Part shown: positions 634 to 21,695 of the stretch, in pieces
Layout: each line of letters begins with the position of its first letter
Numbering within the stretch: the stretch's first letter is position 1
Source: an uncultured Erysipelotrichaceae bacterium
GTDB lineage: Bacteria > Bacillota_I > Bacilli_A > Erysipelotrichales > Erysipelotrichaceae
Direction of reading: 5' to 3'
NCBI GenBank assembly: GCA_944325295.1
Contig: CALUZL010000143.1
Coordinates: forward strand, 1-26,725
Length of the DNA: 26,725 nucleotides
Notes under the pieces: generated by a model
Seen by the model: the letters and a program-made list of their open reading frames with translations, nothing else
What the model was told of the DNA's origin: nothing
Databases searched by the model: none
Made by a program: the position numbers and the translations under genes

Positions 634-2478
634 CTAATCTTTTGAAGACAAGGAGGTGATTTTATAACTTCCCTTTGCAAGGTCGACACTGACTTTGATG
701 CCGCCTTCAAAGGTCGACTCCATGACTTTGCCATCAGCGCTTAAAAGTCGATGATCTAAAAGTTCACTGTAAGCGACCTTTCGGTGCAGGTCGTTGACGA
801 TCTTGGCACGCTTAGAGCGCTCTTCAAGCGAAAAAGTGCTGCCAAAAGCGCCATCGACATCAGGATAGGCACCATCTCTTATTATATAGGGCATACCGCC
901 ATTCATCAGGGCGTATAACAGGTAATCTTCATCGGCCTCATCAGTGATCCAGGGCAAGATCAGCACATCGTGATAGACCAGGTCAAATAGCGGGATCGCA
1001 AGACCCATCCGCTTGGCTCCTTTCTCTTTAAGCATGAATTCGTAGGGACCGTAGTGGCAAAGAACCAGGGTATCGACTGCCCAATCCGTACACTCCTCAC
1101 TTGAAGGGATGATGCCCTTACTTATGAGATAATGGAAATAGGCTTTTCGCAACTGAGCACACTGAAAGCGGGTCATAGGGTGTCTTGAGTCGTAGCACTC
1201 ATCCATTTCGTTACAGGTAAAGACGTCAAGATAACTGGCAGTCAGTTTGATATCGGCTTTAAAGAGCTCATTGAAATTTCTTTTGACATAGTCTAGGGCC
1301 AAATTGGCACAGAGATAATTCTGCCGTCCGCCGGCCCAGCGATGATGCTCATAGACACTGCCATCAGCTTCCTTTAGCGCATTGTCGATGTTGTATGAGG
1401 GCGCCTTAAGGTAATAATCGCGATATTGATCATGCAGTGCGAAAAGGTCGCCGTTTTCATATAGATAGTGCGAAAGTTCTCTTAGACCCTCACTGCCCCC
1501 GGCCGCCTTACAGATCGGCAAGTAATCCGGATGGCAATTGTCATAGCCCGGATCACCCCAGCCGTCCAAGTGAACATAGAGGCGATCTTTGTGGATCTTC
1601 TTGAGGACCTTCAGTTCATCTAAACGCTCCTTAAAAGTGTGCAAGATGTCATCCTTTGTCGCTTCACTATAAAAAGTCGAAGTCTCATCGGTATGCGTCT
1701 TGATCCCAAAGTGGACAAGGGAAGCACCGATCAGTTTTTTGATAGATGGAAGAGCGATCTCTTTTTCCCGGAGGCTTTTAAAGTGACCTGTCTCTTTTAC
1801 AAAATGCCGATAGATCTTGGCCGCTCTTACATAGTCCATATCCTTTTCAAATGTAAAGCGGGCCGTGCGCTCATAGCCAATCTTCGCTAAACTTTCAAGC
1901 CATCTGAGACCGATCGCCGTAAAAGCTTTGTCACCATGATGGATGACTTTGTACTTGCAATCAAAAGGAGTCAGATTGATAAGACAGTACCCTTGGCCTT
2001 TCTCATATTGATGATACATTGACAAGTAGGCATCGTGACTTAAAAACTGACCATCAAAATCGAGATGGTCGAAGCTGAAATCGTAGGTGTTTGGAAGGTA
2101 TACACCCTGCATTATCGGCAAGGAACTGTAACCTTTGGGATCTTCACTTTTAAAGTATGAAGGCCAGATGATCTCCTTTATCGAAGCTTCATCAACGATC
2201 GGTAAAAGCTTAAAAAAGATCCCTTCAAAACTTATGTAGACAAAGGTCTCAACGATTAGCTTATCGCTAAAGACATAACGTGACAAGATGCCTTTATTTA
2301 CCCCGAGATCCCTGATCGTTTCTTCTTTCAGATGATCTTTAAACAAAAACTGATCACCATTTGCCATGATGATCTTGGGCTCGATGGCCTTGTAGGGTTG
2401 CCAGGTGTGGTCTTCAAAGATGACCGAGTAGAGTTCATCTTCTTTGATCAGGGTAATGTCATAGTTTTCGATCTTCAT
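634..2478 (-). CDS. Cytoplasmic glycoside hydrolase, GH129/DUF5696-like (alpha-N-acetylgalactosaminidase-like)
   Basis: 614 aa with motifs HLDGWGDPGYDNCHPDYLP, HDQYRDYY, WAGGRQNYLC, YLDVFTCNE and SSEE, recognised from GH129 (NagBb-type) enzymes. No signal peptide visible. Confidence 0.8.
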   Translation of the reverse strand: MKIENYDITLIKEDELYSVIFEDHTWQPYKAIEPKIIMANGDQFLFKDHLKEETIRDLGVNKGILSRYVFSDKLIVETFVYISFEGIFFKLLPIVDEASIKEIIWPSYFKSEDPKGYSSLPIMQGVYLPNTYDFSFDHLDFDGQFLSHDAYLSMYHQYEKGQGYCLINLTPFDCKYKVIHHGDKAFTAIGLRWLESLAKIGYERTARFTFEKDMDYVRAAKIYRHFVKETGHFKSLREKEIALPSIKKLIGASLVHFGIKTHTDETSTFYSEATKDDILHTFKERLDELKVLKKIHKDRLYVHLDGWGDPGYDNCHPDYLPICKAAGGSEGLRELSHYLYENGDLFALHDQYRDYYLKAPSYNIDNALKEADGSVYEHHRWAGGRQNYLCANLALDYVKRNFNELFKADIKLTASYLDVFTCNEMDECYDSRHPMTRFQCAQLRKAYFHYLISKGIIPSSEECTDWAVDTLVLCHYGPYEFMLKEKGAKRMGLAIPLFDLVYHDVLILPWITDEADEDYLLYALMNGGMPYIIRDGAYPDVDGAFGSTFSLEERSKRAKIVNDLHRKVAYSELLDHRLLSADGKVMESTFEGGIKVSVDLAKGSYKITSLSSKD

Positions 2479-2492
2479 AATTTCCTCTCTTT

Positions 2493-3689
2493 TTACACTT
2501 CCTTTTTATAATAGCGCTTCAGGGTGCCATAGACAAAAAACGGCGCCAAAGAACAGATCGTCACGGCGACCGCCATATAGTAAGGTCCACCGATCAGATA
2601 ATAGGCAGCCACGATCAAAGACATACCGGCGCAACGCCCCAAAGACATCGCCGTCTCCTTGGCTATGACCCGACCGGTTACATTCTCACTCTTGTCGTAT
2701 CTGGCTATCGCGTTGAGCATGCAGTAATTGTAGGGATTGCCATAGACGGCGGTCCCGATCGCATTGGCAAAACCGAAGTAGATCGCCCCGAAAAGATTGT
2801 CAAAATACACCAAAAACAAGCTCGAAGTTACGATAAAGAAAAGACCGACTTTCAAAAACCGAAACAGCGTCTTTTCAGTCATCCTTTTACAGAGCTCATA
2901 ACTGAAGATCGAAGCGAGCGCAAAGAAGATCAAAAGATTGGCGTATAAAGCATCCGATCCTCCTGTCGCTTCAAAGATCAGGATATTTGTCAAAGTCAAA
3001 GTCAGAGAGTTTTGAAAACCGTAGGCAAAAGTACTGACTTGGATCATATACCAGTTGGGATCAGCACCTTTAGATATCCAAAGTTTGTCCAGTACTTTGA
3101 CAGGCTTGGCATCCTTGCTTGTGAGGTCGAGTTTTAAAGAGACGATGATTATCAAGATGTAGACGAATATCACCAAGGCAAATATCCCATAATAACCAAA
3201 GAGTTCATTAGCGATAAACGCAAAGATGAGACTGGATACAGAGGGGGCGATGATACTGGTGATATTGTTGGCGATGCCGATATTGGCAAGGTAGTCATTG
3301 CGATGTTCACTTAAAGGCGCGATCTGATTGGCACTGTTGATGCTGAACCAGTAAAGACCCTCACCGACCCCGTAAAGGATGGCTGCACCATAAACATAGA
3401 TCGTATTTTCGGAAAACAGATTCTGCATGACGAGGATATAGATCATCATCAGCGTCAAAAAAAATAAGCCACCGCTGATGGTGACAGAATACGGCACCTT
3501 TCGCACCGCTTTACCACCGATGGTAAAAAAGAGCGGGAAAAGGGCGATCCTGATGATCGTATAGATCGACATCATGACCAGTGACTTAGTATATTCGTAG
3601 ATAAAAACACTGACAAAGGAAGTAGACAAAACATTAGCGAAGTTGAAAAGACTGTTTATCAAGACCAGCCGTGACTCGGTTTTTGTCAT
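2493..3689 (-). CDS. MFS transporter
   Basis: 398 aa with about 12 hydrophobic segments in a 6+6 arrangement. RBS upstream. Confidence 0.85.
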   Translation of the reverse strand: MTKTESRLVLINSLFNFANVLSTSFVSVFIYEYTKSLVMMSIYTIIRIALFPLFFTIGGKAVRKVPYSVTISGGLFFLTLMMIYILVMQNLFSENTIYVYGAAILYGVGEGLYWFSINSANQIAPLSEHRNDYLANIGIANNITSIIAPSVSSLIFAFIANELFGYYGIFALVIFVYILIIIVSLKLDLTSKDAKPVKVLDKLWISKGADPNWYMIQVSTFAYGFQNSLTLTLTNILIFEATGGSDALYANLLIFFALASIFSYELCKRMTEKTLFRFLKVGLFFIVTSSLFLVYFDNLFGAIYFGFANAIGTAVYGNPYNYCMLNAIARYDKSENVTGRVIAKETAMSLGRCAGMSLIVAAYYLIGGPYYMAVAVTICSLAPFFVYGTLKRYYKKEV

Positions 3690-3700
3690 AGTTCCTCCCC

Positions 3701-4840
3701 TTAGTCAAACTTGTACATCTCTCCTTCGATATAGACATCGATGACATCAAAGTCATCATCAAAGACGACGATATCGGCGCGTAGACCCTCACTTAAAAGA
3801 CCACGGTCTTTTACGCCCAAAAGCAGGCACGGGTTTATCGTACAGGCCCGAAGACATGTGACCTCGTCTATTTTGGCTTCTTTTATCCCAAATTGCAAGA
3901 CTTTATTCAAACGATTGGCACTGCCGGCTATCGTTCCATCTTCCAGGCGGGCAACACCGTCTTCACATACGCGGCTTGTGCGCTCACCGTTTGTATAGAT
4001 ACCCGGCTTTAGACCTTTGATCGCCACTGAGTCGGTCACAAAGATGAGCTTATCCTTGCCTTTGATCCGCGCCAAGATGTTGGCAGCCCCTTTATGGACA
4101 TGGACGCCATCGCAGATCACTTCCGCAAAACAATCGTCATTTACCATACAAGCACCTACGACCCCGGGCTCGCGATGATGCAGGGGGCGCATGCCGTTGT
4201 AAGTATGAGTGAAAGAGGTCACTCCTTTTGCTATGGCTTTATTGCAGATATCATAAGTAGCACCACTGTGACCGATGGTCACCCGGATCCCCTTTTTGAC
4301 CAAGTATTCGATGATGCTCATATCCTCGTCGAGCTCTTCCGGTGCCAACATGACAAGTCTTAAGTGATCATGACACGCCTTTGCAAACGCATCGATGATC
4401 TCTTGCGTCGGGACGAGCTTGTTTTCAAGGGATTGGGCACCCCGATAATCAGCCGCTATGAAAGGTCCTTCGCTGTAGACGCCAAGGATCGCTGTACCCT
4501 CTTTCTTTTCATCGATGTAGTTGCCGATGACTTTAAGGCTTGCGATCAATTGAGCATATGGTGCGGTCGAGATCGTCGCCAGAGTCGAAGTTACGCCCTC
4601 ACTTGGCAGATAGTGACACCACTTGCTCAACCACTCTTCACTGGCGTCGTTATTATCACCTAAGAGATAACCGTGATTGTGGATATCGATAAGGCCCGGC
4701 ATGATAAGTTTATCGCCATAGTCTTTATCGGCTTTCAAAAGGCCATAGGGCAAGATACGTTTGATGATCCCGTCTTCAATGACCAAAGTCTTTGGGGTTA
4801 TCTTATCATCGCAGAAAACGCGTTTACTTTGAATTATCAT
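3701..4840 (-). CDS. nagA: N-acetylhexosamine-6-phosphate deacetylase (NagA/AgaA paralog in the sugar cluster)
   Basis: DIHNHG, EGPF, GHSGAT, THTYNGM, DGVH, VTDS and IAGS motifs. Substrate (GlcNAc-6P or GalNAc-6P) cannot be determined from sequence. Confidence 0.9.
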   Translation of the reverse strand: MIIQSKRVFCDDKITPKTLVIEDGIIKRILPYGLLKADKDYGDKLIMPGLIDIHNHGYLLGDNNDASEEWLSKWCHYLPSEGVTSTLATISTAPYAQLIASLKVIGNYIDEKKEGTAILGVYSEGPFIAADYRGAQSLENKLVPTQEIIDAFAKACHDHLRLVMLAPEELDEDMSIIEYLVKKGIRVTIGHSGATYDICNKAIAKGVTSFTHTYNGMRPLHHREPGVVGACMVNDDCFAEVICDGVHVHKGAANILARIKGKDKLIFVTDSVAIKGLKPGIYTNGERTSRVCEDGVARLEDGTIAGSANRLNKVLQFGIKEAKIDEVTCLRACTINPCLLLGVKDRGLLSEGLRADIVVFDDDFDVIDVYIEGEMYKFD

Positions 4841-4841
4841 C

Positions 4842-5822
4842 TTAAATATCCTTTACTATATGATCGTTTAATTCGTTTCGCCAATTCAGGTAGGCGTCAT
4901 TGTTTCGACTCGGATGGACCCGGTTTGCAAGTAAGATCAATCCTTCCATCTTGCGATAGTCAAGCATGATCGAAGTGCCGGTAAAGCCGGTGTGATAGAG
5001 GATACCGTCACCATACTTTTTATCCCAACCAAGGGAGCGGCCGCCGACATTTGTAGCCAATAGAAGTTCGATCGTCTCGCGCTTCAAAATACCATCCCTT
5101 GCATAGAGAAGCGATCTTGCAAAAGTAGCGATATCGCCAATCGTCGAAAAAAGTCCGGCACTGCCACAGCGCCCTTTTAAGATATACCCTTTAGAGTCAT
5201 GACATTCACCGACGATAAGACCTCTTGTCGATGTCAACTCCTCCGGCACACAGCGACTCTTATCGGGGTCAAAGGTGCTGTCATTCATCTTTAAGACATC
5301 AAAGATGTTTTCTTTATAAGTCGCCGCCAGATCCTTGCCGTCGACCTTGGCGATGATAAAGCCCAAAAGGATAAAGCCGATATCGGAATAAACGGTCATC
5401 TCTTCGGGTTTATGGACAAGATCGGTCTGCATGATCCTTTCGTAAATATTGTCTTTAGTGAGCGTCTTTTTATCCTCAAGATCAGCAGGAAGTCCGGAAC
5501 TGTGAAGCAAGAGCTGACGGATCGTCACCTCTTGATGACGAAAATCGGCAAGGTACTTGCAAACTTTGTCGTCAAGGTTGATCTTGCCCTGCTCGAAAAG
5601 TTGCAAGATCCTGGTCGTCGTCGCTACGACTTTCGTACAAGAAGCCATGTCGTAAAGTGATGAGAGCTCTAACTCTTTTGTGTCATAGGGAGCGATCTTT
5701 CCCATCTTGCCCTTGATCATAAAGGTCGATGAATCCTCCTCGATGATAGCGGCACTGATCCCTGCGACAATGCCCTCATAGACCAGATTATCGATCTGCT
5801 CTTTGATGTAGACCGTGTTCAT
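4842..5822 (-). CDS. Serine hydrolase, beta-lactamase/PBP-like fold (AmiE/YfeW-like esterase or amidase)
   Basis: SxxK (SCTK), YSD, LLLHSSG and HTGFTG motifs. Start at ATG 5822 overlaps the murQ stop (ATGA). Confidence 0.85.
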   Translation of the reverse strand: MNTVYIKEQIDNLVYEGIVAGISAAIIEEDSSTFMIKGKMGKIAPYDTKELELSSLYDMASCTKVVATTTRILQLFEQGKINLDDKVCKYLADFRHQEVTIRQLLLHSSGLPADLEDKKTLTKDNIYERIMQTDLVHKPEEMTVYSDIGFILLGFIIAKVDGKDLAATYKENIFDVLKMNDSTFDPDKSRCVPEELTSTRGLIVGECHDSKGYILKGRCGSAGLFSTIGDIATFARSLLYARDGILKRETIELLLATNVGGRSLGWDKKYGDGILYHTGFTGTSIMLDYRKMEGLILLANRVHPSRNNDAYLNWRNELNDHIVKDI

Positions 5823-6724
5823 CTTGTGAGTTTGGCGATCGTCTCTCTTATCTGACCATCGCACGCCACAAAGGCTTCTTTAGCCTTTTTGAGGTCGACT
5901 TTTGCCTGATGCATGATCGTCGCTAAGGCAACGCTTTGACCGCTTTCTTCAAAGAGCGCTTGCGCCTTTTCCCAAGAAAGATCGTTGATTGCGCTGATCA
6001 TGTTGATAGCTCTTTTTACTAGTTTCTCATTTGTCGGCTGGACATTGACCATGTAGTTGCCATAGACTTTGCCGGTCTTGATCATTATCCCTGTTGACAA
6101 CATATTCAAGACCATCTTTTGGGAAGTCCCGGCCTTCATCCTGGTCGATCCAGAGATGACTTCGGGGCCGACGATCGGCGCGATCGAGTATTTGGCGACT
6201 TTTGCCATCTCGCTTTCACCATTACAGGTAACAGCGACCGTCACACAACCCAAACTGTTGGCATACTCTAAAGTGGCGATCGTATAAGGTGTCCGTCCAC
6301 TGGCGGCAACGCCGACAACGCTGTCTAAAGGCCCAAGGTCGATCGCCTTCATATCCGCAATACCGAGCTCCTTGCTGTCTTCAGCGCCTTCGACCGCCTT
6401 AAACATGGCTCCCTGACCACCGGCCATGACGCCAAAAGCTCGCTCCGGTGCTAAACCATAAGTCGGCAAAAGCTCTGAGGCATCCATTACCCCAAGTCTT
6501 CCCGATGTTCCGGCACCGGTATAGATCAGTCTTCCGCCTTTTTTGAAATTGACCACGATCGCATCGATCGCCTCAGCGATATGACCGATCTCTTTTTCGA
6601 TCGCCAGTGCGACCTTTTTATCTTCATTATTGATAAGGGTCACGATCTCTTCAGTGCTTAAAAGATCGATATCTTTAGTCGCCTCATTGCGACTTTCCGT
6701 AGTTAGATTTTTAAGTTCTGTCAT
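5819..6724 (-). CDS. murQ: N-acetylmuramic acid 6-phosphate etherase
   Basis: TTESRN, GAGTSGRLGVMDASE, GAED, ASGRTPY, GPEVISGSTRMKAGTSQKMVLNMLST and GNYMVNVQPTNEKL motifs. Confidence 0.96.
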   Translation of the reverse strand: MTELKNLTTESRNEATKDIDLLSTEEIVTLINNEDKKVALAIEKEIGHIAEAIDAIVVNFKKGGRLIYTGAGTSGRLGVMDASELLPTYGLAPERAFGVMAGGQGAMFKAVEGAEDSKELGIADMKAIDLGPLDSVVGVAASGRTPYTIATLEYANSLGCVTVAVTCNGESEMAKVAKYSIAPIVGPEVISGSTRMKAGTSQKMVLNMLSTGIMIKTGKVYGNYMVNVQPTNEKLVKRAINMISAINDLSWEKAQALFEESGQSVALATIMHQAKVDLKKAKEAFVACDGQIRETIAKLTR

Positions 6725-6733
6725 CTTTCACCT

Positions 6734-7453
6734 CTAAAAATGCCGACAACGGCCTGCAAAATGTTCATAGATCGCATCGTTGTCAAAACCATCGACGTTT
6801 TGCGATTGGAATACATAGGGTTTGACCCCTTTTTCTACCAAGATCTTGATCGCTTCACTGACGATCGTATCCAGTAAAAACATACTGCTGATCGATGAAG
6901 CCGGGCCGGTCTTATACGGGCCGATCGCCAACAAGGAATCACCATCGGGGCAGCAATTGTCTATGATCACATCGACACATTCATAAAGTTTTTTGCCGCT
7001 TTGGTGGCGAGAGGTCGTCTTCTTTGACTGTTCAAGATTAGTCAACGCTACCGTAAAGATCCCCTCTTTCTTACAGCGCATCGCCATCTCGATGGGCATG
7101 GCATTACGGCCGCTGTTTGAAGAGATGATCATGATGTCACCCTTTTCGATCTTGTATTGATCAAAGATGATATCACTGATCCCGCTCAACTGCTCAAGTG
7201 CTCCCGACCGACGTGCTCCAAAGGCTGTGAGCGTATCGGGGTCTAAGATGGCATTGACATTGCCAAGACCGCCGGCGCGGGCAAAAAGTTCAATCCCGAT
7301 CATGTGGGAATGACCGGTACCGAAAGTGTGGATGATGTGATCGTTTTCGATATTTTCGGCAAATTTAGCCGCCAACAGTAATATCTTGTCATGATTTACT
7401 GTCTCTGCTTTATTTAAGACTTCGATTATCTTTTGTCCGTATATAAATTCCAT
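6734..7453 (-). CDS. SIS-domain sugar-phosphate enzyme, UPF0309-type (canonical copy)
   Basis: FGTGHS, ELFARAGGL, SNSGRN, SRHQSGKKL and IDNCCPDGD motifs. Confidence 0.88.
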   Translation of the reverse strand: MEFIYGQKIIEVLNKAETVNHDKILLLAAKFAENIENDHIIHTFGTGHSHMIGIELFARAGGLGNVNAILDPDTLTAFGARRSGALEQLSGISDIIFDQYKIEKGDIMIISSNSGRNAMPIEMAMRCKKEGIFTVALTNLEQSKKTTSRHQSGKKLYECVDVIIDNCCPDGDSLLAIGPYKTGPASSISSMFLLDTIVSEAIKILVEKGVKPYVFQSQNVDGFDNDAIYEHFAGRCRHF

Positions 7454-8181
7454 TAGATCCTACCTCGATATCTCTCTTTAAGTTCTTCATCTAATATACT
7501 GTCACCTCTAAGGAGCGGTACTTCTTTCTTGTCGTTGTACATGATCTCCACGACTCTGGCAGCCATACTTTGAGCGATGTAGTTATTACAGATGGAAGAA
7601 ACGGAACAGACTCTGGCTTCTCCTTCCGTTTCCAAAAGCGCATCGCCATGCGGACCGCAATTGTCGATGACGACATCACCGTACATGTACAGTTTCTTAC
7701 CACTGGGGTGGCGTGATTGCTCGGCTGTGGTATGCTTCATACTGGTGACGATGATCACCTTGTGACCGTTCTCTTTGGCCAAAGCGGCAATGTCGATCAC
7801 AAGACCGTTGATCCCGGAATTGGAAATGACGATAAAGACGTCTTGCGGGCGGATATCGTAAAGCGCATAGAGACGACCGGCGACATCCGGTCTTCTTTCA
7901 AAGACGTTGGTCTTATCCTGAAATTCCGTTAAAGACACAATGCCCTTGGTGACAAAATCACTCATCTCCATGATATGGATCGGCACCAAAGAGCCGACCC
8001 TGCCGGTTATGTCGATGCCAAGACCGACAGAATGGCCTGAACCGAATACGTGAACGACACCATCGTTTTCAAGACATTCAGCGACGATCTTAGCACATTT
8101 TTCAATATTGTCCTTTTGTGTATCATAAACTTCGTCTAAAAGACTCAAGATCTCATCTTTAAATTTCTTTGCGTCGATCAT
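7453..8181 (-). CDS. SIS-domain protein, UPF0309-type (second copy)
   Basis: FGSGHS, ISNSGIN, SRHPSGKKL and IDNCGPHGD motifs. TAATG overlaps with both neighbours. Confidence 0.88.
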   Translation of the reverse strand: MIDAKKFKDEILSLLDEVYDTQKDNIEKCAKIVAECLENDGVVHVFGSGHSVGLGIDITGRVGSLVPIHIMEMSDFVTKGIVSLTEFQDKTNVFERRPDVAGRLYALYDIRPQDVFIVISNSGINGLVIDIAALAKENGHKVIIVTSMKHTTAEQSRHPSGKKLYMYGDVVIDNCGPHGDALLETEGEARVCSVSSICNNYIAQSMAARVVEIMYNDKKEVPLLRGDSILDEELKERYRGRI

Positions 8182-9392
8182 TATCTAACCCTTCCCATGT
8201 ACACATCTGTCAGTGCGTTGTTGTGAAGATCGGCTCCTTTGAGGTTTGCCGACAATAGTACCGGAGCTTCAAGTCCTCTTTCCTTAAAACAGTTATAGAC
8301 TTCAGCCGTAAGCATCTGGGCCAAGACATTGGCAACAGTCGATGATGTCTGGGCGACCCTGAGATCGTCGACTTTGATGGCGATATCGGAGCGCGTGCTG
8401 CCCATATCGAGATACATGTCAGCGATATCCAAAAGTTTTTCACCCTGATCACCTGTCGCTTTGACGTCATAGCTCTTCTTGTTGACGACGGCGATGACCT
8501 TTTGGCCATTGGCTTTATAGCGTTTGGCAAGTTCAAGCGTAAACAGTTCGCTTGCATCTTTAGAGACGACGATGAGCATATCCCGATCGTCGAGTTTGTA
8601 GTGAGCGAGCATCTTATCGATATAAGAGGGATCGTTTGCGATCGAACCGTCGCTTATGATCGCATGGGGCGCTTCACCTTCAAGATCTAAGATCGAAACA
8701 CTCATGCCATGGTATGGAGCCATGCCCCCTGCTCTGAAATTGAGTTCATTGACGAATTCATTTGCGTGATTAAATCCGAAAAGCTGTACGACACCATTAT
8801 TGGTCATCGTATCGCAGATCATTTCCGCAGCCTCTTTGATTTTGTCGCTTTGATCGTCATAGACGTTTTCGATCTGCTCTTTTAGAATATCGAGATACAG
8901 CTTTTTGATGTCGACTTTTTCCATTTTCTTTCTCCTTTTAAACGGATTGCGAAAGGTCAGTTTTTTATTCTTGTTCAGCTCTTTTTGAAGCTGGATACTT
9001 TCTTTCTTATCGATGTATTTGCGAAGAGCCTTGTTGACCTTCGCTATCTGATAGGTCTCCCTTAAGATCTGGCGGCCGTCTTTTAGACGCAGATAGAGTG
9101 AATAGGGTTTAGCCCGATTGATGTTCCACTCTTCGATGTCGCTAAAGGGGATCGTCTCTTCAACACTGCCGCTATTTGGATCATAGATCGCCAGACGATC
9201 GTCGTAGATGTCTAAAAGGTGATAATCTTTGACCCCAAACTGGACTAAAAGGGAAAGTCCCACTAAGAATAGTCCCAGCAAGATCGAAGCGATGTGGCCG
9301 AAATAGACACACGCACAACCCAATAAAGCTATCAGCAACTGGGGAAAGACAGGCTTATAATTGACAACTACACATTCTTTTTCTTTATCCAT
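8181..9392 (-). CDS. Membrane domain (about 156 aa, 2 TM plus a soluble part) fused in frame to a degenerate UPF0309-type SIS domain
   Basis: GGAGGT before ATG 9392. Internal AGGAG (8932-8936) and in-frame ATG 8924 (residue 157) start a 247-aa SIS unit containing ELNFRAGGM and GEKLLDIADMYLD. Confidence 0.8.
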   Translation of the reverse strand: MDKEKECVVVNYKPVFPQLLIALLGCACVYFGHIASILLGLFLVGLSLLVQFGVKDYHLLDIYDDRLAIYDPNSGSVEETIPFSDIEEWNINRAKPYSLYLRLKDGRQILRETYQIAKVNKALRKYIDKKESIQLQKELNKNKKLTFRNPFKRRKKMEKVDIKKLYLDILKEQIENVYDDQSDKIKEAAEMICDTMTNNGVVQLFGFNHANEFVNELNFRAGGMAPYHGMSVSILDLEGEAPHAIISDGSIANDPSYIDKMLAHYKLDDRDMLIVVSKDASELFTLELAKRYKANGQKVIAVVNKKSYDVKATGDQGEKLLDIADMYLDMGSTRSDIAIKVDDLRVAQTSSTVANVLAQMLTAEVYNCFKERGLEAPVLLSANLKGADLHNNALTDVYMGRVR

Positions 9393-9407
9393 AACAACCT
9401 CCGAATA

Positions 9408-9442
9408 ATAAAAGAAACCTAAGGATCGAACGATCCTTAGGT
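9408..9442 (-). terminator. Intrinsic terminator-like hairpin after PTS IIB
   Basis: Perfect inverted repeat ACCTAAGGATCG (9417-9428) / CGATCCTTAGGT (9431-9442), followed on the minus strand by TTCTTTTAT. Confidence 0.8.
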
Positions 9443-9454
9443 ATTGATCATCTC

Positions 9455-9940
9455 TTATAGAAGACCTTCTTTTCTCAGACCCTCCATGACATCGACTTCT
9501 TCGTTTGCCGGGGTGATCCGAGATGTGACTTTACCAAAGTGATCACAGAGTTTTTGATAGACCTGAGCATCTTCCTTGGTAGCAGCGATCGTTTTCGTAA
9601 TCATCTTGTATTGGGTTCCCTGTACCGGTGCGGCTGTACCGACGTTGAATTCCTGGATCTCAAGTCCGGATTCGACAAGTGCCAGCGCATCTGTCGGAAA
9701 CTTACATATTACGAACAATGTTTCATCTTCATGAGCTTTGGCGTAATCGATCGTTTCCTGGATCGAGAAGACCTTGACCGGTGTTCCTCTGGCTGCCAGT
9801 GGCAGTGCCATCTTCTGGATACGATCTTGAGCGACTGCATCATTACAGACGATGATCTCTTTTGCGCCGATATGATTCATCCAAGCCGCTGCAACTTGGC
9901 CATGGATCAAACGGCTGTCAATACGCATGTGTTTAATCAT
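9455..9940 (-). CDS. PTS mannose/fructose/sorbose family IIB component
   Basis: RIDSRLIHGQV phospho-His motif, VCNDAVAQD and KFPTDAL. Confidence 0.95.
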   Translation of the reverse strand: MIKHMRIDSRLIHGQVAAAWMNHIGAKEIIVCNDAVAQDRIQKMALPLAARGTPVKVFSIQETIDYAKAHEDETLFVICKFPTDALALVESGLEIQEFNVGTAAPVQGTQYKMITKTIAATKEDAQVYQKLCDHFGKVTSRITPANEEVDVMEGLRKEGLL

Positions 9941-9984
9941 AATTTACCTCATTTCTATAGATTTAACATTGTAGCTGACTTTTT

Positions 9985-10818
9985 TTATTTAGCCAAGATT
10001 TCGAATGCACCTAAAGCGAATGTGACAATAGCCAAGATGAGGATTGTCTTTAAAGGTGATACACGGAATTTCTTGATCAGTAAGTAGCAACCGGCCGTTA
10101 AAAGGATCGGTAACAGATACGGTAAGATCGCATCTAACATACCTTGGACCTGAATGACGTTTGCAACTTCTTCACCGGCTTCGTTGATGATCGTACCGAT
10201 CTCGATATCATTGATATGTAATGAAGCCAAGATCGATGGTACGAAACCACCGATAACGGTGATACCTAAGATACTGGCTGCGACTTGCAATGTATCGAAT
10301 GTGCTCGTTCCGGCAACGTCGCTGATGACTTCCTCACCCTTACGATAACCATAGTAGAATAAAGGCCAACGTACAACGAAAGTGAGAAGGGTCGGTAAGA
10401 TAGCGACGACGACAGCCAACCAGTTACCTTCTGATGCTAAAGAAGCAGCTAAGATATTTAATGGCGGATTTAAAAGAATAGCTTGGATCGTATCACCGAT
10501 AGCGGCTAAAGGACCCATGAGCGCGATCTTCAAACTGTCGGCGATATCGGTCTGATAAGCCTCTTCCAAAGCGAGGGATGCGCCAAACTGGACAGCACCG
10601 GCCATCGGGTTGGTGTTGTAAAACTGCATGTGTCTTTCGAGGTTGCGGCAGATCTCATCGTTATCGTCGTAGAGTTCTTTGAATGCCGGTACCATTGAGT
10701 AAGCATAACCGGCACCCTGCATCTTTTCATAGTTCCAGCACCACTGTAAGCATGCGTTGTAACGCAGAGCTGATTTACTAAGTGTCTTCTTTGACAGTCT
10801 CTTATTAGTTCTAGCCAT
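9985..10818 (-). CDS. PTS mannose/fructose/sorbose family IID component
   Basis: WNYEKMQGAGY, RHMQFYNTNP and LMGPLAAIGD motifs. GGAGGT 7 nt before ATG 10818. Confidence 0.95.
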   Translation of the reverse strand: MARTNKRLSKKTLSKSALRYNACLQWCWNYEKMQGAGYAYSMVPAFKELYDDNDEICRNLERHMQFYNTNPMAGAVQFGASLALEEAYQTDIADSLKIALMGPLAAIGDTIQAILLNPPLNILAASLASEGNWLAVVVAILPTLLTFVVRWPLFYYGYRKGEEVISDVAGTSTFDTLQVAASILGITVIGGFVPSILASLHINDIEIGTIINEAGEEVANVIQVQGMLDAILPYLLPILLTAGCYLLIKKFRVSPLKTILILAIVTFALGAFEILAK

Positions 10819-11551
10819 TATTAGCACCTCCTACATACTTGTTCATGAACAGGGCACCTAAAGCACAACCTAATACTGCAAGAGCGATCGTGTTTAAGCC
10901 AAGGTAGCCATAGCCTACATAACCGATAAGCATGAATGGCCAGAATTTCTTGATATCCATGTATGACAATAAAAGCGCAAAACCGACTGCCGGTAAAGCG
11001 GCACCGACGACTGCCAGACCATTGGATACCCATTCGATACTGTTGGCGAAGTCAGCAAGTACCTGAACGCTGTCGATCATGAGCATACCCAAGAATACCG
11101 GGATAGCACGTGACAGGATCCATGGAAGTGTACCACACAATGTCCAAGTTTCAAATAAGCCGATCTTATTTTTAGCCAGGGCACTTTCACCTAAGTGTTG
11201 GAATACCGTTGTCGTAGCACGACCCAAGATATCCATCTGCGACATCAAAAGGGCCAATGTGACGGCGATACCAAGACCGACATCATAGCTGCCCGTTCTT
11301 GAGGCAACAACTGTACCAAAGACAGTACCGGCGATGTAGTCAGGTATTGTAGCTCCTCCATAAGTGAAGAAACCTAAGCTCATCAAAAGACAAGCCGAAC
11401 CGATTTGGAATCCCATCTCGACGTTTCCTACCATCAAGCCGGAGATGACGCCGGCCCAAAGGACGTTGTTTATGGAAACACCAGAAAGGGCGATTACCTG
11501 GCCGATACCTACGTACAAACCAAGTACGATTCCTAAAACTAAATTACTCAT
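10811..11551 (-). CDS. PTS mannose/fructose/sorbose family IIC component
   Basis: Hydrophobic protein with GGATIPD and GAALPAVGFALLL motifs. RBS GGAGG. Overlaps IID. Confidence 0.93.
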   Translation of the reverse strand: MSNLVLGIVLGLYVGIGQVIALSGVSINNVLWAGVISGLMVGNVEMGFQIGSACLLMSLGFFTYGGATIPDYIAGTVFGTVVASRTGSYDVGLGIAVTLALLMSQMDILGRATTTVFQHLGESALAKNKIGLFETWTLCGTLPWILSRAIPVFLGMLMIDSVQVLADFANSIEWVSNGLAVVGAALPAVGFALLLSYMDIKKFWPFMLIGYVGYGYLGLNTIALAVLGCALGALFMNKYVGGANNG

Positions 11552-11644: not shown

Positions 11645-11676
11645 AAAAAAATTACCTAGTATTTCCTAGGTAATTT
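11645..11676 (-). terminator. Intrinsic terminator after the patB-like gene
   Basis: 11-bp perfect stem AAATTACCTAG / CTAGGTAATTT with a 6-nt loop, ending in a T-run on the minus strand. Confidence 0.8.
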
Positions 11677-11684: not shown

Positions 11685-12860
11685 TTATATGATTTGATTA
11701 TTCTTTAACCATCTCACTAAACGGTCCAGACCCTCTTTGAGGTTGGCACGCGGTGTGGCACAGTTGACGCGAATGTACTTCTGGTAGCGCTCATCAAAGG
11801 ATACGCCCGGATTGAAGTGGACACCACCCTCTTCCTTGAGACGATCGACAAAATCAAGCGGCAGATCAAAAGCATCTAGGCTTACCCAGGCAAGGTAAGT
11901 AGCGTCAGGGATATGCGTCTTGGCCAAAGGCAGGTTCTCCTTTAAGTAATTCTCCAAATACTTGAAGTTAGCTAAGATGTAGGTGTTGCACTCCTTTAAC
12001 CACTCATCGCCATAGCGGTAAGCCGCTTCAAGAGCCGTGTAACCGAAGATGTTGATCGAAGCGATGCCCACGGCCTTAGCCTCATCCTGAAGCATCTTCA
12101 TGATCTTTTCGTTTTTGCAAAGGATGTAAGATACTTTGATGCCGGCAAGGTTAAACGTCTTTGTCGGTGCACAAAGGACGACGACATTGTCAAGGTACTC
12201 TTCTTTTGTTCCTAAAGCGCTGTGGTGAGTGTGTCCGGGCATGATGAGGTCGCCATGGATCTCATCGGAAATGACATAGACACCGTATTTATAACAGATC
12301 GCCAAAAGGCTTTCGATCTCCTCTTTGCTGAAGAGATGACCGGTAGGATTGTGCGGGTTGCAAAGGATAAAGCACTTGATCTTCGGATCATCTTTAAGCT
12401 TCTTTTCAAAATCTTCAAGATCGACTTTATAGTTTTCATCTTCGTTCACAAAAGATGTCATAACGACTTCTCTTTTAAGCTGTCTTGGCGTATTTACAAG
12501 CGGTGGGTAGCTTGGCATCATGACTAACACCTTGTCATCACTTTCAGTCAAGACGCTCAGCGCCAAATGTAACCCGTGGACGACACCGGTCACAAGAAGG
12601 ATGTCCTTGGCTTCGATGTCGATGGCGTGATGCCTTTTGACAAAGCTTATGATCTCACTGTTTAGATCTTTCATGGCGACGGTATAACCATAGATACCGT
12701 GCTCGGCGCGCTTGACGATCGCCTCCTTGACCTCAGGCACCGTCTTAAAGTCCATATCCGCCACCCAAAGCGGGATGATATCCTTATCACCATACTGATC
12801 CCATTTAGTACAATCCGTACCTTTGCGCATTACGACTTCATCAAAATCAAACATTTTCAT
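11685..12860 (-). CDS. MalY/PatB family PLP-dependent C-S lyase
   Basis: PLWVADMDF, CNPHNPTG, SDEIHGD and APTKTFNLAG (PLP lysine) motifs. Confidence 0.93.
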   Translation of the reverse strand: MKMFDFDEVVMRKGTDCTKWDQYGDKDIIPLWVADMDFKTVPEVKEAIVKRAEHGIYGYTVAMKDLNSEIISFVKRHHAIDIEAKDILLVTGVVHGLHLALSVLTESDDKVLVMMPSYPPLVNTPRQLKREVVMTSFVNEDENYKVDLEDFEKKLKDDPKIKCFILCNPHNPTGHLFSKEEIESLLAICYKYGVYVISDEIHGDLIMPGHTHHSALGTKEEYLDNVVVLCAPTKTFNLAGIKVSYILCKNEKIMKMLQDEAKAVGIASINIFGYTALEAAYRYGDEWLKECNTYILANFKYLENYLKENLPLAKTHIPDATYLAWVSLDAFDLPLDFVDRLKEEGGVHFNPGVSFDERYQKYIRVNCATPRANLKEGLDRLVRWLKNNQII

Positions 12861-13644
12861 TCCTTCTTTCTATTATCGCGATCGCTTCTTTAACACTGCC
12901 TACGACATGATCGCTGTTTCTTTTGACCTCTTCATTTGCCCATTGCACACAAAAACCCAAAGCGGCATGCCTTATCATCTCAAGGTCATTGCCCTCATCA
13001 CCGATACAGGCAAGTTCTTTGGTATCAAGACCGTGTTTCTTCAAAAGATACTCGATGCCATACCACTTGTTAGTCTTGGCACTGACGACCTCAAGACTTT
13101 TGTGATCGGCATGAAAAGCCTTAAAGTCATCGCCATAGTCTTCGTTTATCTTGGCCATGACTTCTAAAGCGAGCTCATCACTTGCACACATCACAAAAAA
13201 CTTGAAGATGACTTCATGATCTTCAAAGAAAGTATCAGGCTTTAAAATATTCAGTTTGCCGAGATCTTTGATCTGCATATGCCTTGCGAAATTACCGTAT
13301 TTGGCCTTGGCATACTCTTGAGGTGTATTGGCATCGATCGTGTAGTCAAGACCTTCAACGCCATCTAAAAAAGCGATCATCCTCAAACCTTCTTCTTTTC
13401 TGATCCCGGATATCAAGACTTCATCTTTACCATCACTGACGACTGACCCGGTCGAGCCGATCATGTATTCCGGATAAAGCCCCTGACGATTGAGCTCCTT
13501 TAAGAAACTGCAAGGACGCCCGCTGGCGACCCAAAAACGACCGCCCTTTTCCACAAAAGCATTCAGGGCAGCGATGTCGTCTTTAGCGATCGTCTTGTGA
13601 TCGCTTCCTAAAAGGGTGCCGTCCAGATCTGAGACAAAGATCAT
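12847..13644 (-). CDS. Cof-type HAD-IIB phosphatase
   Basis: DLDGTLL, ASGR, K.tNKWYG and IGDEGNDLEM motifs. Confidence 0.92.
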   Translation of the reverse strand: MIFVSDLDGTLLGSDHKTIAKDDIAALNAFVEKGGRFWVASGRPCSFLKELNRQGLYPEYMIGSTGSVVSDGKDEVLISGIRKEEGLRMIAFLDGVEGLDYTIDANTPQEYAKAKYGNFARHMQIKDLGKLNILKPDTFFEDHEVIFKFFVMCASDELALEVMAKINEDYGDDFKAFHADHKSLEVVSAKTNKWYGIEYLLKKHGLDTKELACIGDEGNDLEMIRHAALGFCVQWANEEVKRNSDHVVGSVKEAIAIIERRNENV

Positions 13645-13646: not shown

Positions 13647-14045
13647 TTATTGAGCCTGTTCTAAGACCTTCTTGAGGTCAGCTACACCATCTTTACCCGT
13701 ATTTAAAAGGTTGGCTACATCGATGTCACCGAATTCGCGGGAAGTCATGACTTCTAAGACCATCGGCAAGTTCATTCCGGTGATGACCTCGACTTTGTCG
13801 TTTAAGATCCTGGCCATGCAGTTGCAAGGACTGCCAAACAAAAGATCGCAAAAGACAAGGACGCCATCGCCTGTATCGACTCTTTCACAAGCCGCCTTTA
13901 AGACATCGACGAATTCATCGGGGTTGTCTTCCGGTTTAAGACAGACAGCTTCGACCTGTTTTAAATCTTCTCCCAAAAACAGTTTAACTGTTTCAAGCAT
14001 CCCTCTGGCGAGGTCTCCGTGACTTGTAATGATTATACCCTTCAT
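13647..14045 (-). CDS. PTS mannose/fructose family IIA component
   Basis: IIITSHGDLA, DLLFGSPCN and TGMNLPMVLE motifs. Confidence 0.95.
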   Translation of the reverse strand: MKGIIITSHGDLARGMLETVKLFLGEDLKQVEAVCLKPEDNPDEFVDVLKAACERVDTGDGVLVFCDLLFGSPCNCMARILNDKVEVITGMNLPMVLEVMTSREFGDIDVANLLNTGKDGVADLKKVLEQAQ

Positions 14046-14071: not shown

Positions 14072-14602
14072 CTATTTTCCTTCCATCTTTCTCTTTTTGA
14101 AAAACGCCACAAGAAAGATGATACTGAATACCAATACGATAGCGGCCAAGGCATAGTTGAGGATCGCTGTCAAATTGTCAAAATCACTCATCTGCACATT
14201 GACACAAAGCAAGATGCTCATAGCCAAACACAAGATGCTGGCCGTGATGATCCGCGCTTGGCTCAGCGGCTCGACGATCCGATCGATGAGCGATGAATTC
14301 TCCGGTTTTTTAAAGCCGCTTATGACCTTGAGACTGGGAACGAAATTCTTATAAAACATGAAAGTCATCCCGACATAGATAAAAATGCCAAGACCGATAC
14401 CCAGCCAAAACTGGTTCAAGACGCTTGTGACGATAAAACCGATGATGATCGCTAAAGGCAGACGTGATTGATAGATCGTATACTTCTTGTATTCATCATC
14501 GTCGTTGATCCAATAGCCTTTTTTGTCAAAAATATTGTAGAAGACATAGCGTCCCCTTTCATCTGTGTAGACATGCAAACCTACTAATCTTCCTTTTTTC
14601 AT
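14072..14602 (-). CDS. Hypothetical membrane protein (about 4 TM)
   Basis: 176 aa. ATGA overlap with the upstream gene. Two hydrophobic hairpins. Confidence 0.75.
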   Translation of the reverse strand: MKKGRLVGLHVYTDERGRYVFYNIFDKKGYWINDDDEYKKYTIYQSRLPLAIIIGFIVTSVLNQFWLGIGLGIFIYVGMTFMFYKNFVPSLKVISGFKKPENSSLIDRIVEPLSQARIITASILCLAMSILLCVNVQMSDFDNLTAILNYALAAIVLVFSIIFLVAFFKKRKMEGK

Positions 14603-15732
14603 TTACCGAGCTCCTTTAAAAAAGATATGATCCTCTCTTTGGTACCTTTAGTCAGTGTATCGAGAAACATCTCATAAGTCACATAGGGAAAATCTACCGG
14701 CAAGATGTAAGGACCATAACCGTTAGAGTAAGATACCAAGATACTATTATTAATATTAATATAATTTAAGTAATCCGAAAAGATTTCATTGGGATAAAAT
14801 ATGACCTTAAAAGTTCCAAGAGAAAGGATGCTGATCTTAGCTCCTTTTTGTGCCTTGGTAAGGTCGATACGAGAGCGCATGATCTCGCCATACCTTATCG
14901 TCTCAAGCTCCCTCTCACTCAGATCGCTGCGGATCTCATCTAAAGCGATCGGTGCCAGTGTGTGCTCATAGGGCAAAAAATACTCCTTGCAGTCAAGAGC
15001 CAGCTTTTGGTATTTTTCTTGAGTTTTAAGACTCTCGATCTTTTTGACCAAGAGCTTTGCAAGTCTTGAGACTTCCTTATAATCCTGGCCCTCTCTTACA
15101 AAACGCGAAGAGATGTCGCCCATCGCACCACTGAGATAAGTGAAATCTTCAAGCGGATAGTGCTCATGTAACTCTTTTAGGACAAGTCCTGGAAATTCGC
15201 TGCTGAAATAGGGTGTATCGGCACTTAAGATCGTCGGATGACAATTGTAGATGACGATGTTTAAAAGGACATCATTAGCGTCTTTGATCTCTATAAGACT
15301 GAGGTATTCATTGTGGGCCTCATAGCCACTTATCCTTGACTTTCCAACTTTATCGAAAGGAGTGGTCACCTTTGCATAGTAAAGATCGCCATACTCTTTG
15401 ATCGTCATCTTTTCGATATTGGTCTTGATGACCTTTAAAAGATAGCTTCGATATTCACTGTCGCTCACATCATTCCCATAGTGGGTATGCGTCGCTGACG
15501 TTATGAGCTTTACATCAGCGCCCACATAAGCCTTTAATTCGGCGTAGAGCTTTTCATCAAAACCCAAAAGATCTAAGGATATGTGCAAGACCTTGATATC
15601 TTTCTCAAGATAAAAGATCCGTCCCTTTAGATCATCATGATATTTATCGATCTTTTCTGTCTGCATCAAATGACCGCATTGTCTTGTTGCAAAAGGTGCC
15701 GCGATCGAAAACGCACAAAATCCATAACGCAT
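14599..15732 (-). CDS. Neutral/alkaline ceramidase N-terminal-domain-like metallo-amidohydrolase
   Basis: SLDLLG, SATHTHYG, YNCHPTIL, SSEFPG and GAMGDIS motifs match this family's metal-binding pattern. No signal peptide. Confidence 0.7.
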   Translation of the reverse strand: MRYGFCAFSIAAPFATRQCGHLMQTEKIDKYHDDLKGRIFYLEKDIKVLHISLDLLGFDEKLYAELKAYVGADVKLITSATHTHYGNDVSDSEYRSYLLKVIKTNIEKMTIKEYGDLYYAKVTTPFDKVGKSRISGYEAHNEYLSLIEIKDANDVLLNIVIYNCHPTILSADTPYFSSEFPGLVLKELHEHYPLEDFTYLSGAMGDISSRFVREGQDYKEVSRLAKLLVKKIESLKTQEKYQKLALDCKEYFLPYEHTLAPIALDEIRSDLSERELETIRYGEIMRSRIDLTKAQKGAKISILSLGTFKVIFYPNEIFSDYLNYININNSILVSYSNGYGPYILPVDFPYVTYEMFLDTLTKGTKERIISFLKELGK

Positions 15733-20952: not shown

Positions 20953-21695
20953 TATCTTACCTCGTAATCTTCTGGCTCTAAAAGCGAAGCAGCTTCGGTA
21001 TCGACCACGACGGTGACTGATGGGTGTTTTTGTAAGATCGAAGCCGGACACTTCTCGCTGATCGGACCCTTGATCATATCGTGGATCGCCTGTGCTTTAT
21101 TCTTGCCATTTGCCACAAGCAGGATATTTTTGGCTTTCATGATGTTGGCCGGACCCATCGTTATAGCTTCATGCGGCACTTCTTCTCCAAGCGGATCAAA
21201 GAAACGGGCATTATCGGTGCGGGTTTGCTCTGTGAGTTCAGTGACATGAGTCGTCTGACTAAAGGGTGTATCCGGCTCATTAAAGCCGATATGACCATCA
21301 GAACCGATACCCAATACCTGAATATCGACGACCATCTTTTCCATGGCTTCATCGTAATCCTTAGCATTTTTAGCTAAATCGCCAAGACCGCTTGGAATAT
21401 GGATGTGGTCCTCAGGAATATCGATGTGATCGAAAAGCTGCTTGTGCATGAAAGTGTAGTAACTTTCACTGTGCTCAAGCGGCAGACCGACATATTCATC
21501 AAGGTTAAAAGTATAGATGCCCTTATAGCTGGTGCCGTTTTCCGTGTGATCTTTGATCATGCGCTTATAAAGACCGATCGGACTTGAACCGGTAGCCAGA
21601 CCTAAGACACTGCCCTCTTTCAGATAAGGCTTCATGACTTCGAAAGCGACATCGCTGACGCCGTCATAATCCTTCGTACAAATTACTCTAAACAT
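20952..21695 (-). CDS. nagB: Glucosamine-6-phosphate deaminase
   Basis: LGLATGSSP, FNLDEYVGL, LGIGSDGHIGFNEP and CPASILQ motifs. Confidence 0.97.
   Translation of the reverse strand: MFRVICTKDYDGVSDVAFEVMKPYLKEGSVLGLATGSSPIGLYKRMIKDHTENGTSYKGIYTFNLDEYVGLPLEHSESYYTFMHKQLFDHIDIPEDHIHIPSGLGDLAKNAKDYDEAMEKMVVDIQVLGIGSDGHIGFNEPDTPFSQTTHVTELTEQTRTDNARFFDPLGEEVPHEAITMGPANIMKAKNILLVANGKNKAQAIHDMIKGPISEKCPASILQKHPSVTVVVDTEAASLLEPEDYEVR

Follow-up and report, generated by a model that had tools for sequence, protein, structure and literature searches.

The DNA considered here, called the window throughout, comprises positions 1 to 26,725 of contig CALUZL010000143.1 from an uncultured Erysipelotrichaceae bacterium (GenBank assembly GCA_944325295.1), and its subject is a gene cluster that combines a mannose-family phosphotransferase system (PTS), three SIS-domain proteins of the UPF0309 family and several enzymes of amino-sugar metabolism. 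The window consists of a near-continuous run of minus-strand genes (Table 1). A preliminary description drawn from the letters alone had named PTS IIC, IID and IIB, three SIS proteins, MurQ, a serine hydrolase, a NagA paralogue, a transporter of the major facilitator superfamily (MFS) and a glycoside hydrolase of family GH129 as a tightly packed cluster at 634-11551. All of these genes were confirmed by Pfam, NCBIfam and PDB sequence searches, on the minus strand and tightly packed as stated, whereas the extent has to be revised, since the packed run continues upstream to 16343 and canonical nagA and nagB genes lie at 19813-21695. The extension adds PTS IIA, a HAD phosphatase, a PatB lyase, an amidase of ceramidase fold and two small membrane proteins. 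In agreement with the same description, family searches of the window proteins found no AgaS-type gene, tagatose kinase or tagatose aldolase.

The source genome (G000) is a metagenome-assembled genome (MAG) of 1.3 Mb and 85% completeness; its relatives are uncultured Erysipelotrichaceae, and near-identical DNA is present in chicken-gut metagenomes. Synteny of the whole cluster extends to four congeners, which mostly carry a fourth UPF0309 gene placed between the hydrolase and NagA. A scan with an alignment of orthologues of the third SIS protein (S3) returned 80 loci, nearly all from Erysipelotrichaceae and including the cultured carriers Anaerorhabdus furcosa ATCC 25662 (L090), Holdemania sp. 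Marseille-P2844 (L075) and Massilicoli timonensis. The triad S1-S2-S3 is present in 71 of these loci in nearly constant order, with median spacings of -1 nt between S1 and S2 and +1 nt between S2 and S3, and S3 occurs alone in nine; each group of orthologues is monophyletic (support 0.997, 0.978 and 0.944 for S1, S2 and S3). Counted within 10 kb of S3, the neighbours link the SIS genes to NagA (47 of 80 loci), to a mannose-type PTS (IIC 45, IID 45, IIB 44, IIA 38) and to MurQ (32), so that the neighbourhood conservation proposed earlier as a check was borne out. Further recurrent neighbours are the small membrane protein u203 (26), the hydrolase with penicillin-binding protein (PBP) fold (24), the ceramidase-fold amidase (22), CutC (17), a GFO/MocA oxidoreductase (15), HAD phosphatases and M20 and M29 peptidases; PatB was seen in few loci. 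The smallest versions, at loci L032 and L052, read SIS3-NagA-u377-IIC-IID-IIA-IIB-MurQ-hydrolase, where u377 is the ceramidase-fold protein, and block order and orientation differ between genera. Among the 80 loci, GH129 and the MFS gene were found solely in the source genus, which places both outside the conserved core and goes against the inclusion of GH129 in a core pathway. A side observation concerns the ruminant MAG loci L038, L050, L033 and L047, where a mutY-like gene (HhH-GPD plus NUDIX_4) lies between the SIS triad and GFO-NagA-MurQ; such an insertion is found in 12 loci, which often have two esterases and an ATP-grasp enzyme downstream.

Membership of the UPF0309/NagS family was decided by the whole-protein cut-off of NCBIfam model NF002805 (135 bits), and all three proteins of the window exceed it: the fused first protein SIS1f with 167, SIS2 with 230 and SIS3 with 243 bits. 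Each has a single SIS_2 domain, and none has the two PF01380 domains and the length of ~350-390 aa by which AgaS/GlmS-type proteins are recognized. Judged by these searches, S1-S3 belong to the NagS/UPF0309 family and not to the AgaS/GlmS type, as the preliminary description had suspected; its mention of NagS (SCO4393) as an N-acetylglucosamine 6-phosphate (GlcNAc-6P) dehydratase also agrees with the literature, in which this enzyme of Streptomycetaceae is represented by the structures 9eol, 9f7o and 9f7v (PMC12680351). The active site of NagS is built across the dimer interface, an arrangement shared by the family of S1-S3: Arg64, Ala65, Gly227 and Asn228 come from the neighbouring monomer, and His53, Arg64, Glu94 and Asp179, plus Ser91 and Asn228, are essential (PMC12680351). 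The proteins studied here are nevertheless distant from NagS (phmmer scores of 116, 76 and 61 bits for S3, S2 and S1), and in each case the uncharacterised BH3325 protein (PDB 3cvj) is the nearer relative; SIS3, for example, matched 3cvj with an E value of 2e-45 and NagS (9eol) with 1.5e-32. NagS proper is delimited by ~59% identity or more to the Streptomycetaceae proteins and by divergent pairing with dmdR1 (PMC12680351), whereas S1-S3 are only distant homologues and have no dmdR1-type neighbour in the window. Non-streptomycete homologues were explicitly left without function in the same study, and those tested from Clostridium and Paenibacillus (26-33% identity to NagS) showed no GlcNAc-6P dehydration (PMC12680351), so that it would be wrong to name S1-S3 'NagS', and GlcNAc-6P dehydratase activity does not follow from homology. 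A sequence search with S3 returned only entries named 'SIS domain-containing protein'. UPF0309 genes also occur outside the module. In the source genome a fourth one, with all NagS residues present (L109:1270-3744, G000:C15), lies directly downstream of a UlaA/galactitol-type EIIC and EIIA_2, and the 1.3-Mb genome G009 has 16 matches to the fused S1 protein (its SIS domain or its N-terminal domain), an unusually large share.

When the orthologues are mapped onto the functional positions given for NagS (PMC12680351), the three groups show distinct patterns. S3 keeps His53, Ser54, Arg64, Glu94, Ser119, Ser121, Asp179 and Asn228 in 78-79 of 79 orthologues, with Gly at the position of Ser91 and a Ser one position earlier. 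The residues H53, S54, E94, S119, S121 and D179 are invariant in all 67 orthologues of S2, in which position N228 is a gap or variable and the C-terminus is without Asn228. S1, finally, retains Arg64 and Asn228 (each 66 of 67) and also Asp179, but S54 is changed to Gly, S121 is variable, the GRN loop is altered and Glu94 is not conserved. Since the losses of S1 and S2 are complementary, a dimer of the two would possess one complete site and one dead site, with S2 supplying the same-subunit (cis) residues and the degenerate S1 only Arg and Asn across the interface (trans). We infer from these patterns that the SIS genes encode two enzymes and not three, namely S3, presumably as a homodimer, and an obligate S1·S2 heterodimer with a single composite active site. 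The earlier count of three UPF0309 enzymes thus stands with regard to family and fails with regard to equivalence, as one member appears to be a conserved pseudoenzyme partner and is, in the window, part of a fusion protein.

Several observations are consistent with the S1·S2 heterodimer. S1 and S2 are equal in number (67 and 67) and always occur together, and S1/S2 pairs without S3 are found elsewhere in related genomes (L110, L113). Two loci encode fused two-domain UPF0309 proteins of 455-459 aa (L112:1602-2969, G009:C61; L114:5242-6621, G015:C3), whose N-terminal half is without the Asn228 equivalent and whose C-terminal half has it; by their residue patterns these may be the proposed heterodimer in covalent form. 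When SIS2 was paired with the SIS1 domain, complex prediction gave a score of 0.92, compared with 0.00 for the best of three controls; 51 of 78 solved complexes attain that mark, as do 2 of 108 mismatched pairs. Contacts agreed to at least 95% between runs, with a partner pLDDT of at least 89, and the predicted interface includes R220 and N383 of SIS1f and H50 and D180 of SIS2. As related homo-oligomers have been solved (3cvj, 9eol), this pass may reflect recall of a like complex, and the prediction cannot tell which paralogue binds which.

The first 156 residues of the 403-aa SIS1f form two transmembrane helices and a PH-like sandwich in the AlphaFold2 (AF2) model (pLDDT 85.6). The top match of this domain among AlphaFold database clusters is a YcxB family protein (TM-score 0.81), and its PDB matches are PH, PTB and FERM-F3 domains. 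It occurs as a free-standing gene in 24 of the 71 triad loci, typically just downstream of IIB, and in none of the nine S3-only loci, and it is fused in frame to S1 in five species of the source genus, in four of which the old start Met of S1 is still visible. The fusion is a Rosetta-stone hint that the PH-like protein and S1 interact, and it would hold the S1·S2 heterodimer at the membrane beside the transporter. Another contig of the source genome (L107:1-16000, G000:C101) encodes, at 8130-8564, a homologue of this N-terminal domain as a separate protein, and in addition carries two more mannose-family PTS sets, one of them with a fused IIC-IID of 523 aa, a GlmS-C/deglycase-like protein with two SIS domains and two Mga/PRD-type regulators.

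Table 1 Features of the packed run and the canonical nag genes in the window
Feature	Position	Strand	Basis or remark
u203, small membrane protein with two transmembrane helices	15732-16343	-	First gene of packed run; present in 26/80 loci, mostly adjoining PTS
u377, putative cytoplasmic amidohydrolase, neutral-ceramidase fold	14599-15732	-	AF2 model and Foldseek
u176, small membrane protein	14072-14602	-	Conserved in congeners
PTS EIIA, mannose family	13647-14045	-	PF03610, 95 bits
Cof-type HAD-IIB sugar-phosphate phosphatase	12847-13644	-	PF08282, 134 bits
PatB/MalY-family pyridoxal phosphate-dependent C-S (beta) lyase	11685-12860	-	TIGR04350, 376 bits vs cut-off 340
Terminator-like hairpin between patB and IIC	11649-11676	-	11-bp stem then T-run; consensus match only
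PTS EIIC, mannose family	10811-11551	-	PF03609, 157 bits; reaches no equivalog cut-off
PTS EIID, mannose family	9985-10827	-	PF03613, 247 bits
PTS EIIB, sorbose/mannose family	9455-9940	-	PF03830, 133 bits
Hairpin and T-run between IIB and SIS1, possible terminator/attenuator	9417-9442	-	11-bp stem, 5 GC pairs, then TTCTTTTATT
SIS1f N-terminal domain, two transmembrane helices and PH-like (YcxB-family) domain	8925-9392	-	AF2 model
SIS1 (S1), degenerate UPF0309 domain, putative pseudoenzyme subunit	8181-8924 (whole gene 8181-9392)	-	NF002805, 167 bits
SIS2 (S2), UPF0309 subunit, full cis catalytic set without Asn228	7453-8181	-	NF002805, 230 bits
SIS3 (S3), UPF0309 protein with all NagS catalytic residues	6734-7453	-	NF002805, 243 bits
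MurQ, etherase for N-acetylmuramic acid 6-phosphate	5819-6724	-	TIGR00274, 371 bits vs cut-off 302
Cytoplasmic PBP/beta-lactamase-fold serine hydrolase (YfeW/AmiE-like)	4842-5822	-	PF00144, 161 bits
NagA paralogue (N-acyl-hexosamine-6-phosphate deacetylase)	3701-4840	-	TIGR00221, 257 bits vs cut-off 226 (225.65)
MFS transporter	2493-3689	-	PF07690, 30.5 bits, under cut-off 33.4; conserved in congeners
GH129 alpha-N-acetylgalactosaminidase	634-2478	-	PDB 5wzn (NagBb), E 1e-140
Canonical nagB	20952-21695	-	TIGR00502, 256 bits vs cut-off 237
Canonical nagA	open reading frame 19813-21051	-	TIGR00221, 312 bits

Within the run, SIS1/SIS2 and SIS2/SIS3 each overlap by 1 nt, and the murQ stop and hydrolase start overlap as ATGA, the true hydrolase start being the ATG at 5822. 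The remaining gaps measure 1-14 nt, with the exceptions of IID-IIB (44 nt), IIB-SIS1 (62 nt) and PatB-IIC (133 nt); the last two contain the hairpins with T-runs, on account of which transcription of the unit may be split into as many as three parts. Short contigs of the gut metatranscriptome X19 cover only IIC/IID and patB, and as contig data with possible DNA carry-over they show neither co-transcription nor use of the hairpins. No classical regulator (MurR/RpiR, GntR or DeoR) was found in the cluster, which leaves as the only candidate DNA-binding protein nearby a divergent 333-aa open reading frame on the plus strand (16440-17441) whose sole recognisable part is a central YjbR domain. The small membrane proteins u203 and u176 had no match in Pfam or NCBIfam, and for u203 an atlas search gave only a lead to DUF3592-like proteins, below 0.9.

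Among the accessory enzymes, u377 (377 aa, without a signal peptide) has no Pfam match and no sequence-level PDB match, so that its assignment is fold-level evidence only: the AF2 model (pLDDT 92.7) matched human and Pseudomonas neutral ceramidase in Foldseek with an E value of 2e-20, a probability of 1.00 and a TM-score of 0.77 over their catalytic domain. His82, His84, His165, Glu316 and Tyr353 are invariant and are candidate metal-site residues; this His/His/His/Glu/Tyr set would fit a Zn amidohydrolase. The serine hydrolase has an SxxK motif and no signal peptide; its best NCBIfam model, PBP4B (NF002968), scores 99 bits, well under the equivalog cut-off of 385, and with YfeW and AmiE it shares only the fold (PF00144), the motif and adjacency to murQ. 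MurQ is the single protein above the TIGR00274 cut-off in each of the genomes G000, G010 and G008. Both NagA copies exceed the TIGR00221 cut-off, a model that does not separate specificity for GlcNAc-6P from that for N-acetylgalactosamine 6-phosphate (GalNAc-6P). The HAD phosphatase scores 131 bits with TIGR00099, slightly below the cut-off of 137, and the best NCBIfam model for EIIA is AgaF, with 89 bits under a cut-off of 130. GH129 reaches 26.8 bits with its Pfam model (cut-off 25.6), and its residues 19-609 align to residues 22-630 of NagBb from Bifidobacterium bifidum, of which it is a full-length homologue. The Asp and Glu at NagBb D435 and E478, which we take to be the catalytic residues of GH129, are conserved. 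The protein also has the His and Asp that are changed in the 5wzq variant, so that putative catalytic and metal-site residues are kept. No signal peptide was noticed, and the gene ends the PTS/MurQ/SIS cluster beside an MFS gene instead of standing in the bifidobacterial galacto-N-biose/lacto-N-biose (GNB/LNB) context.

These genes suggest a route in which the mannose-type PTS (IIA/IIB/IIC/IID), with the small membrane accessory proteins, would import and 6-phosphorylate an N-acyl amino sugar; the likeliest candidate is a peptidoglycan fragment of muramic-acid type, or else another amino sugar with an amide- or ether-linked substituent still attached. The cytoplasmic PBP-fold hydrolase, the ceramidase-fold Zn enzyme and the NagA paralogue would strip the substituents, MurQ and the NagS-family SIS enzymes would perform C2-deprotonation and C3-elimination/hydration, and all would converge on GlcNAc-6P, then glucosamine 6-phosphate (GlcN-6P) and glycolysis via the canonical NagA-NagB pair; GH129 and the MFS transporter would add alpha-GalNAc conjugates as a second, genus-specific input. 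NagS, MurQ and SIS isomerases all start by taking the C2 proton from an open-chain sugar phosphate, and which step follows (C3 elimination, hydration or isomerisation) is not readable from sequence. That the window holds a variant of a salvage module for amino sugars which is conserved throughout the Erysipelotrichaceae and enlarged in the source genus is, taken jointly with this pathway and the S1·S2 heterodimer, our preferred and tentative reading, to which we would give slightly less than an even chance.

With respect to the substrate, comparison with N-acetylmuramic acid (MurNAc) operons is instructive. In Escherichia coli the order is murQ-murP-yfeW and in Bacillus subtilis murQ-murR-murP-amiE-nagZ (PMC5061867), and the window resembles both in a MurQ equivalog adjoining a PBP/beta-lactamase-fold hydrolase and a PTS, with GlcNAc-6P passing to NagA/NagB. 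It differs in having a four-part mannose-family PTS in place of the Glc-family IIBC protein MurP, no MurR, a hydrolase without a signal peptide, three extra NagS-family proteins, a second NagA and the ceramidase-fold amidase. The unusual pairing of MurQ with a mannose-family PTS, pointed out in the preliminary description, holds up in the 100%-complete congener G010, which has one MurQ, located in the cluster, and no Glc/Fru-type PTS EIIC (PF02378); MurP is accordingly missing, the PTS permeases in the fetched G010 loci are mannose-type, and the obvious source of the MurQ substrate is the mannose-type PTS. The amide hydrolases and peptidases around the sugar enzymes further suggest an amino sugar taken up with amide-linked groups still attached, as in muropeptides. 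A peptidoglycan-derived substrate of muramic-acid type is therefore favoured, if only moderately.

A number of points weigh against the salvage module as just set out. The reaction class of S1-S3 is extrapolated, since the tested Firmicute homologues of NagS were inactive on GlcNAc-6P, and the Glu94 column of S1 (D 24, N 20 and E 10 of 67) is poorly aligned, which makes the loss of the catalytic base less certain than that of the phosphate-binding serines. Every PTS subunit scores under all NCBIfam equivalog cut-offs, so that these models assign no specificity, and we know of no mannose-family PTS that carries MurNAc. No function in a MurNAc route is apparent for PatB, the HAD phosphatase, GH129 and the MFS transporter, and the two terminator-like hairpins divide the run into three possible transcription units. 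Erysipelotrichaceae are moreover documented users of GalNAc (PMC8063399), which favours a GalNAc reading. Together with GH129 and the MFS gene, and with the content of G010, which has just one class II aldolase and, beside its PTS genes, no AgaS-type protein with two SIS domains, this specialism may point to a GalNAc-related role.

One such role, close to what the preliminary description had proposed, would start from an N-acetylhexosamine 6-phosphate other than GlcNAc-6P, such as GalNAc-6P from GH129 or N-acetylmannosamine 6-phosphate (ManNAc-6P), or from a sugar with a 3-O-substituent; NagS-like enzymes would dehydrate this substrate, and MurQ would rehydrate the resulting 2,3-unsaturated intermediate to GlcNAc-6P. 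The scheme is chemically sensible and is in keeping with the complete catalytic set of S3 and with MurQ, which follows the triad directly here and recurs in its neighbourhood elsewhere; NagS is reported to accept both GlcNAc-6P and ManNAc-6P (PMC12680351), and the reliance of Erysipelotrichaceae on GalNAc (PMC8063399) and the presence of GH129 in G010, with its lack of a PTS-adjacent AgaS-type protein and its one class II aldolase, fit as well. C2-C3 dehydration alone, however, leaves the C4 configuration of GalNAc uncorrected, the tested Firmicute homologues do not act on GlcNAc-6P, and GH129 is absent from the module outside the source genus. MurQ as a rehydratase is also not required, as it scores as an ordinary equivalog and together with its PBP-fold neighbour, a partner typical of MurNAc operons that the scheme leaves unexplained, looks like the usual MurNAc arrangement in E. 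coli and B. subtilis. On balance we regard dehydration and rehydration as unlikely, though worth keeping in view. Alternatively, the NagA paralogue could deacetylate a HexNAc-6P and the UPF0309 enzymes could serve as aminosugar-6-phosphate deaminase/isomerases yielding a ketose-6P, in place of AgaS or NagB-II. The layout of mannose-type PTS, NagA paralogue and SIS protein is that of the Aga pathway for GalNAc and galactosamine (AgaVWEF/AgaBCD PTS, AgaA, AgaS, tagatose-6P kinase/aldolase), NagA is the commonest neighbour of S3, AgaF is the best IIA model, and the His/Glu chemistry of SIS enzymes is also compatible with aldose-ketose isomerisation, as in GlmS and AgaS. The differences from the Aga pathway lie in single-domain UPF0309 proteins instead of a two-domain AgaS, in the absence of a linked kinase or aldolase, here and among the neighbours in the 80 loci, and in PTS subunits that all fall under the Aga cut-offs. 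The single class II aldolase of G010, the dehydratase function of the sole characterised UPF0309 member and the NagB in the window also speak against such a replacement, which we consider unlikely. With canonical nagA and nagB in the window the organism has no need of a NagB substitute, and the SIS triad in that role was rejected as the leading idea because nagB lies above its equivalog cut-off here and is present in five of five genomes checked. A canonical Aga route within the cluster was likewise dismissed, as the searches detected neither an AgaS equivalog nor a kinase or aldolase there; elsewhere in the source genome there are only the two-SIS protein on C101, which does not qualify as an AgaS equivalog, and, on C18, a second ketose-bisphosphate aldolase of generic type. 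A route from NagS, NagA and a dehydrogenase to 2-keto-3-deoxy-6-phosphogluconate (KDPG) was also set aside, as the neighbourhood contains no Eda-type aldolase and the product of the 227-aa gene that separates GFO from NagA is a CAAX-protease-like membrane protein.

Two further explanations dispense with muramic acid altogether. Salmonella imports glucoselysine and fructoselysine through the mannose-family Gfr PTS, which is paired with two SIS deglycases, and by analogy the PTS of the window could import a sugar-amino-acid conjugate (a Heyns or Amadori product, or an O- or S-glycosyl amino acid) to be split by the SIS proteins, PatB and peptidases. The PatB beta-lyase within the unit and the recurrence of M20/M29 peptidases, an amidohydrolase and three amidase-type genes would suit such a system; it is nonetheless improbable, given that known deglycases are two-domain PF01380 proteins and not UPF0309, that it offers no easy place for a MurQ equivalog or NagA, and that PatB is rare among the loci. 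Finally, there may be no single pathway, with three or four independent operons (u203-to-PatB, PTS, SIS-to-NagA and MFS-GH129) standing side by side in a compact genome. The hairpins at 11676-11649 and 9442-9417, the variable order and orientation of the blocks and the genus-specific GH129 and MFS genes are what one would then expect, but the same gene families re-associate in many arrangements across the 80 loci, IIA stands apart from the IIBCD subunits that it must serve, and a PH-like neighbour of the PTS is physically fused to SIS1, so that we consider mere juxtaposition very improbable.

Returning to the amino-sugar salvage module, a bolder version of it is that the S1·S2 dimer, docked to the mannose-type PTS via the PH-domain protein, acts with S3 and the second NagA in a hitherto undescribed route, one that handles muramic-acid variants beyond the reach of MurQ and is served by the first mannose-family MurNAc transporter; we regard this as a long shot. 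Candidates may be peptide-bearing or N-deacetylated MurNAc-6P and the muramic delta-lactam of the spore cortex. If true, ether cleavage of the delta-lactam would leave N-lactoyl-GlcN-6P for NagA or a ceramidase-type deacylase, and the NagS family would gain a second reaction class. Our literature searches returned no paper containing 'UPF0309', none that links MurQ with a mannose PTS in Erysipelotrichaceae and none on muramic lactam catabolism, and the module genes go unmentioned in a paper on the GalNAc transcriptome of an Erysipelotrichaceae strain.

Overall, the cluster is an amino-sugar PTS catabolic unit, and as such of a known kind, but no characterised pathway that matches it was found. 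It is unlike every described unit in that a mannose-type PTS is wired to MurQ and a NagS-family module takes the place of AgaS-type enzymes; from NagS itself it is set apart by a PTS-linked triad with a putative pseudoenzyme partner, and further differences are the complementary residues of that subunit, the fusion that would tether it to the membrane in the source genus and the ceramidase-fold amidase. Erysipelotrichaceae are abundant gut bacteria whose growth tracks amino-sugar supply, and some of their 1.1-1.6 Mb genomes hold many UPF0309 genes, a family with NagS as its one characterised member. A conserved, PTS-linked module, together with the prediction that the S2 site is completed by a dead S1, offers a concrete entry to UPF0309 function, and the module could settle how gut Firmicutes without MurP use peptidoglycan debris or mucin-derived amino sugars.

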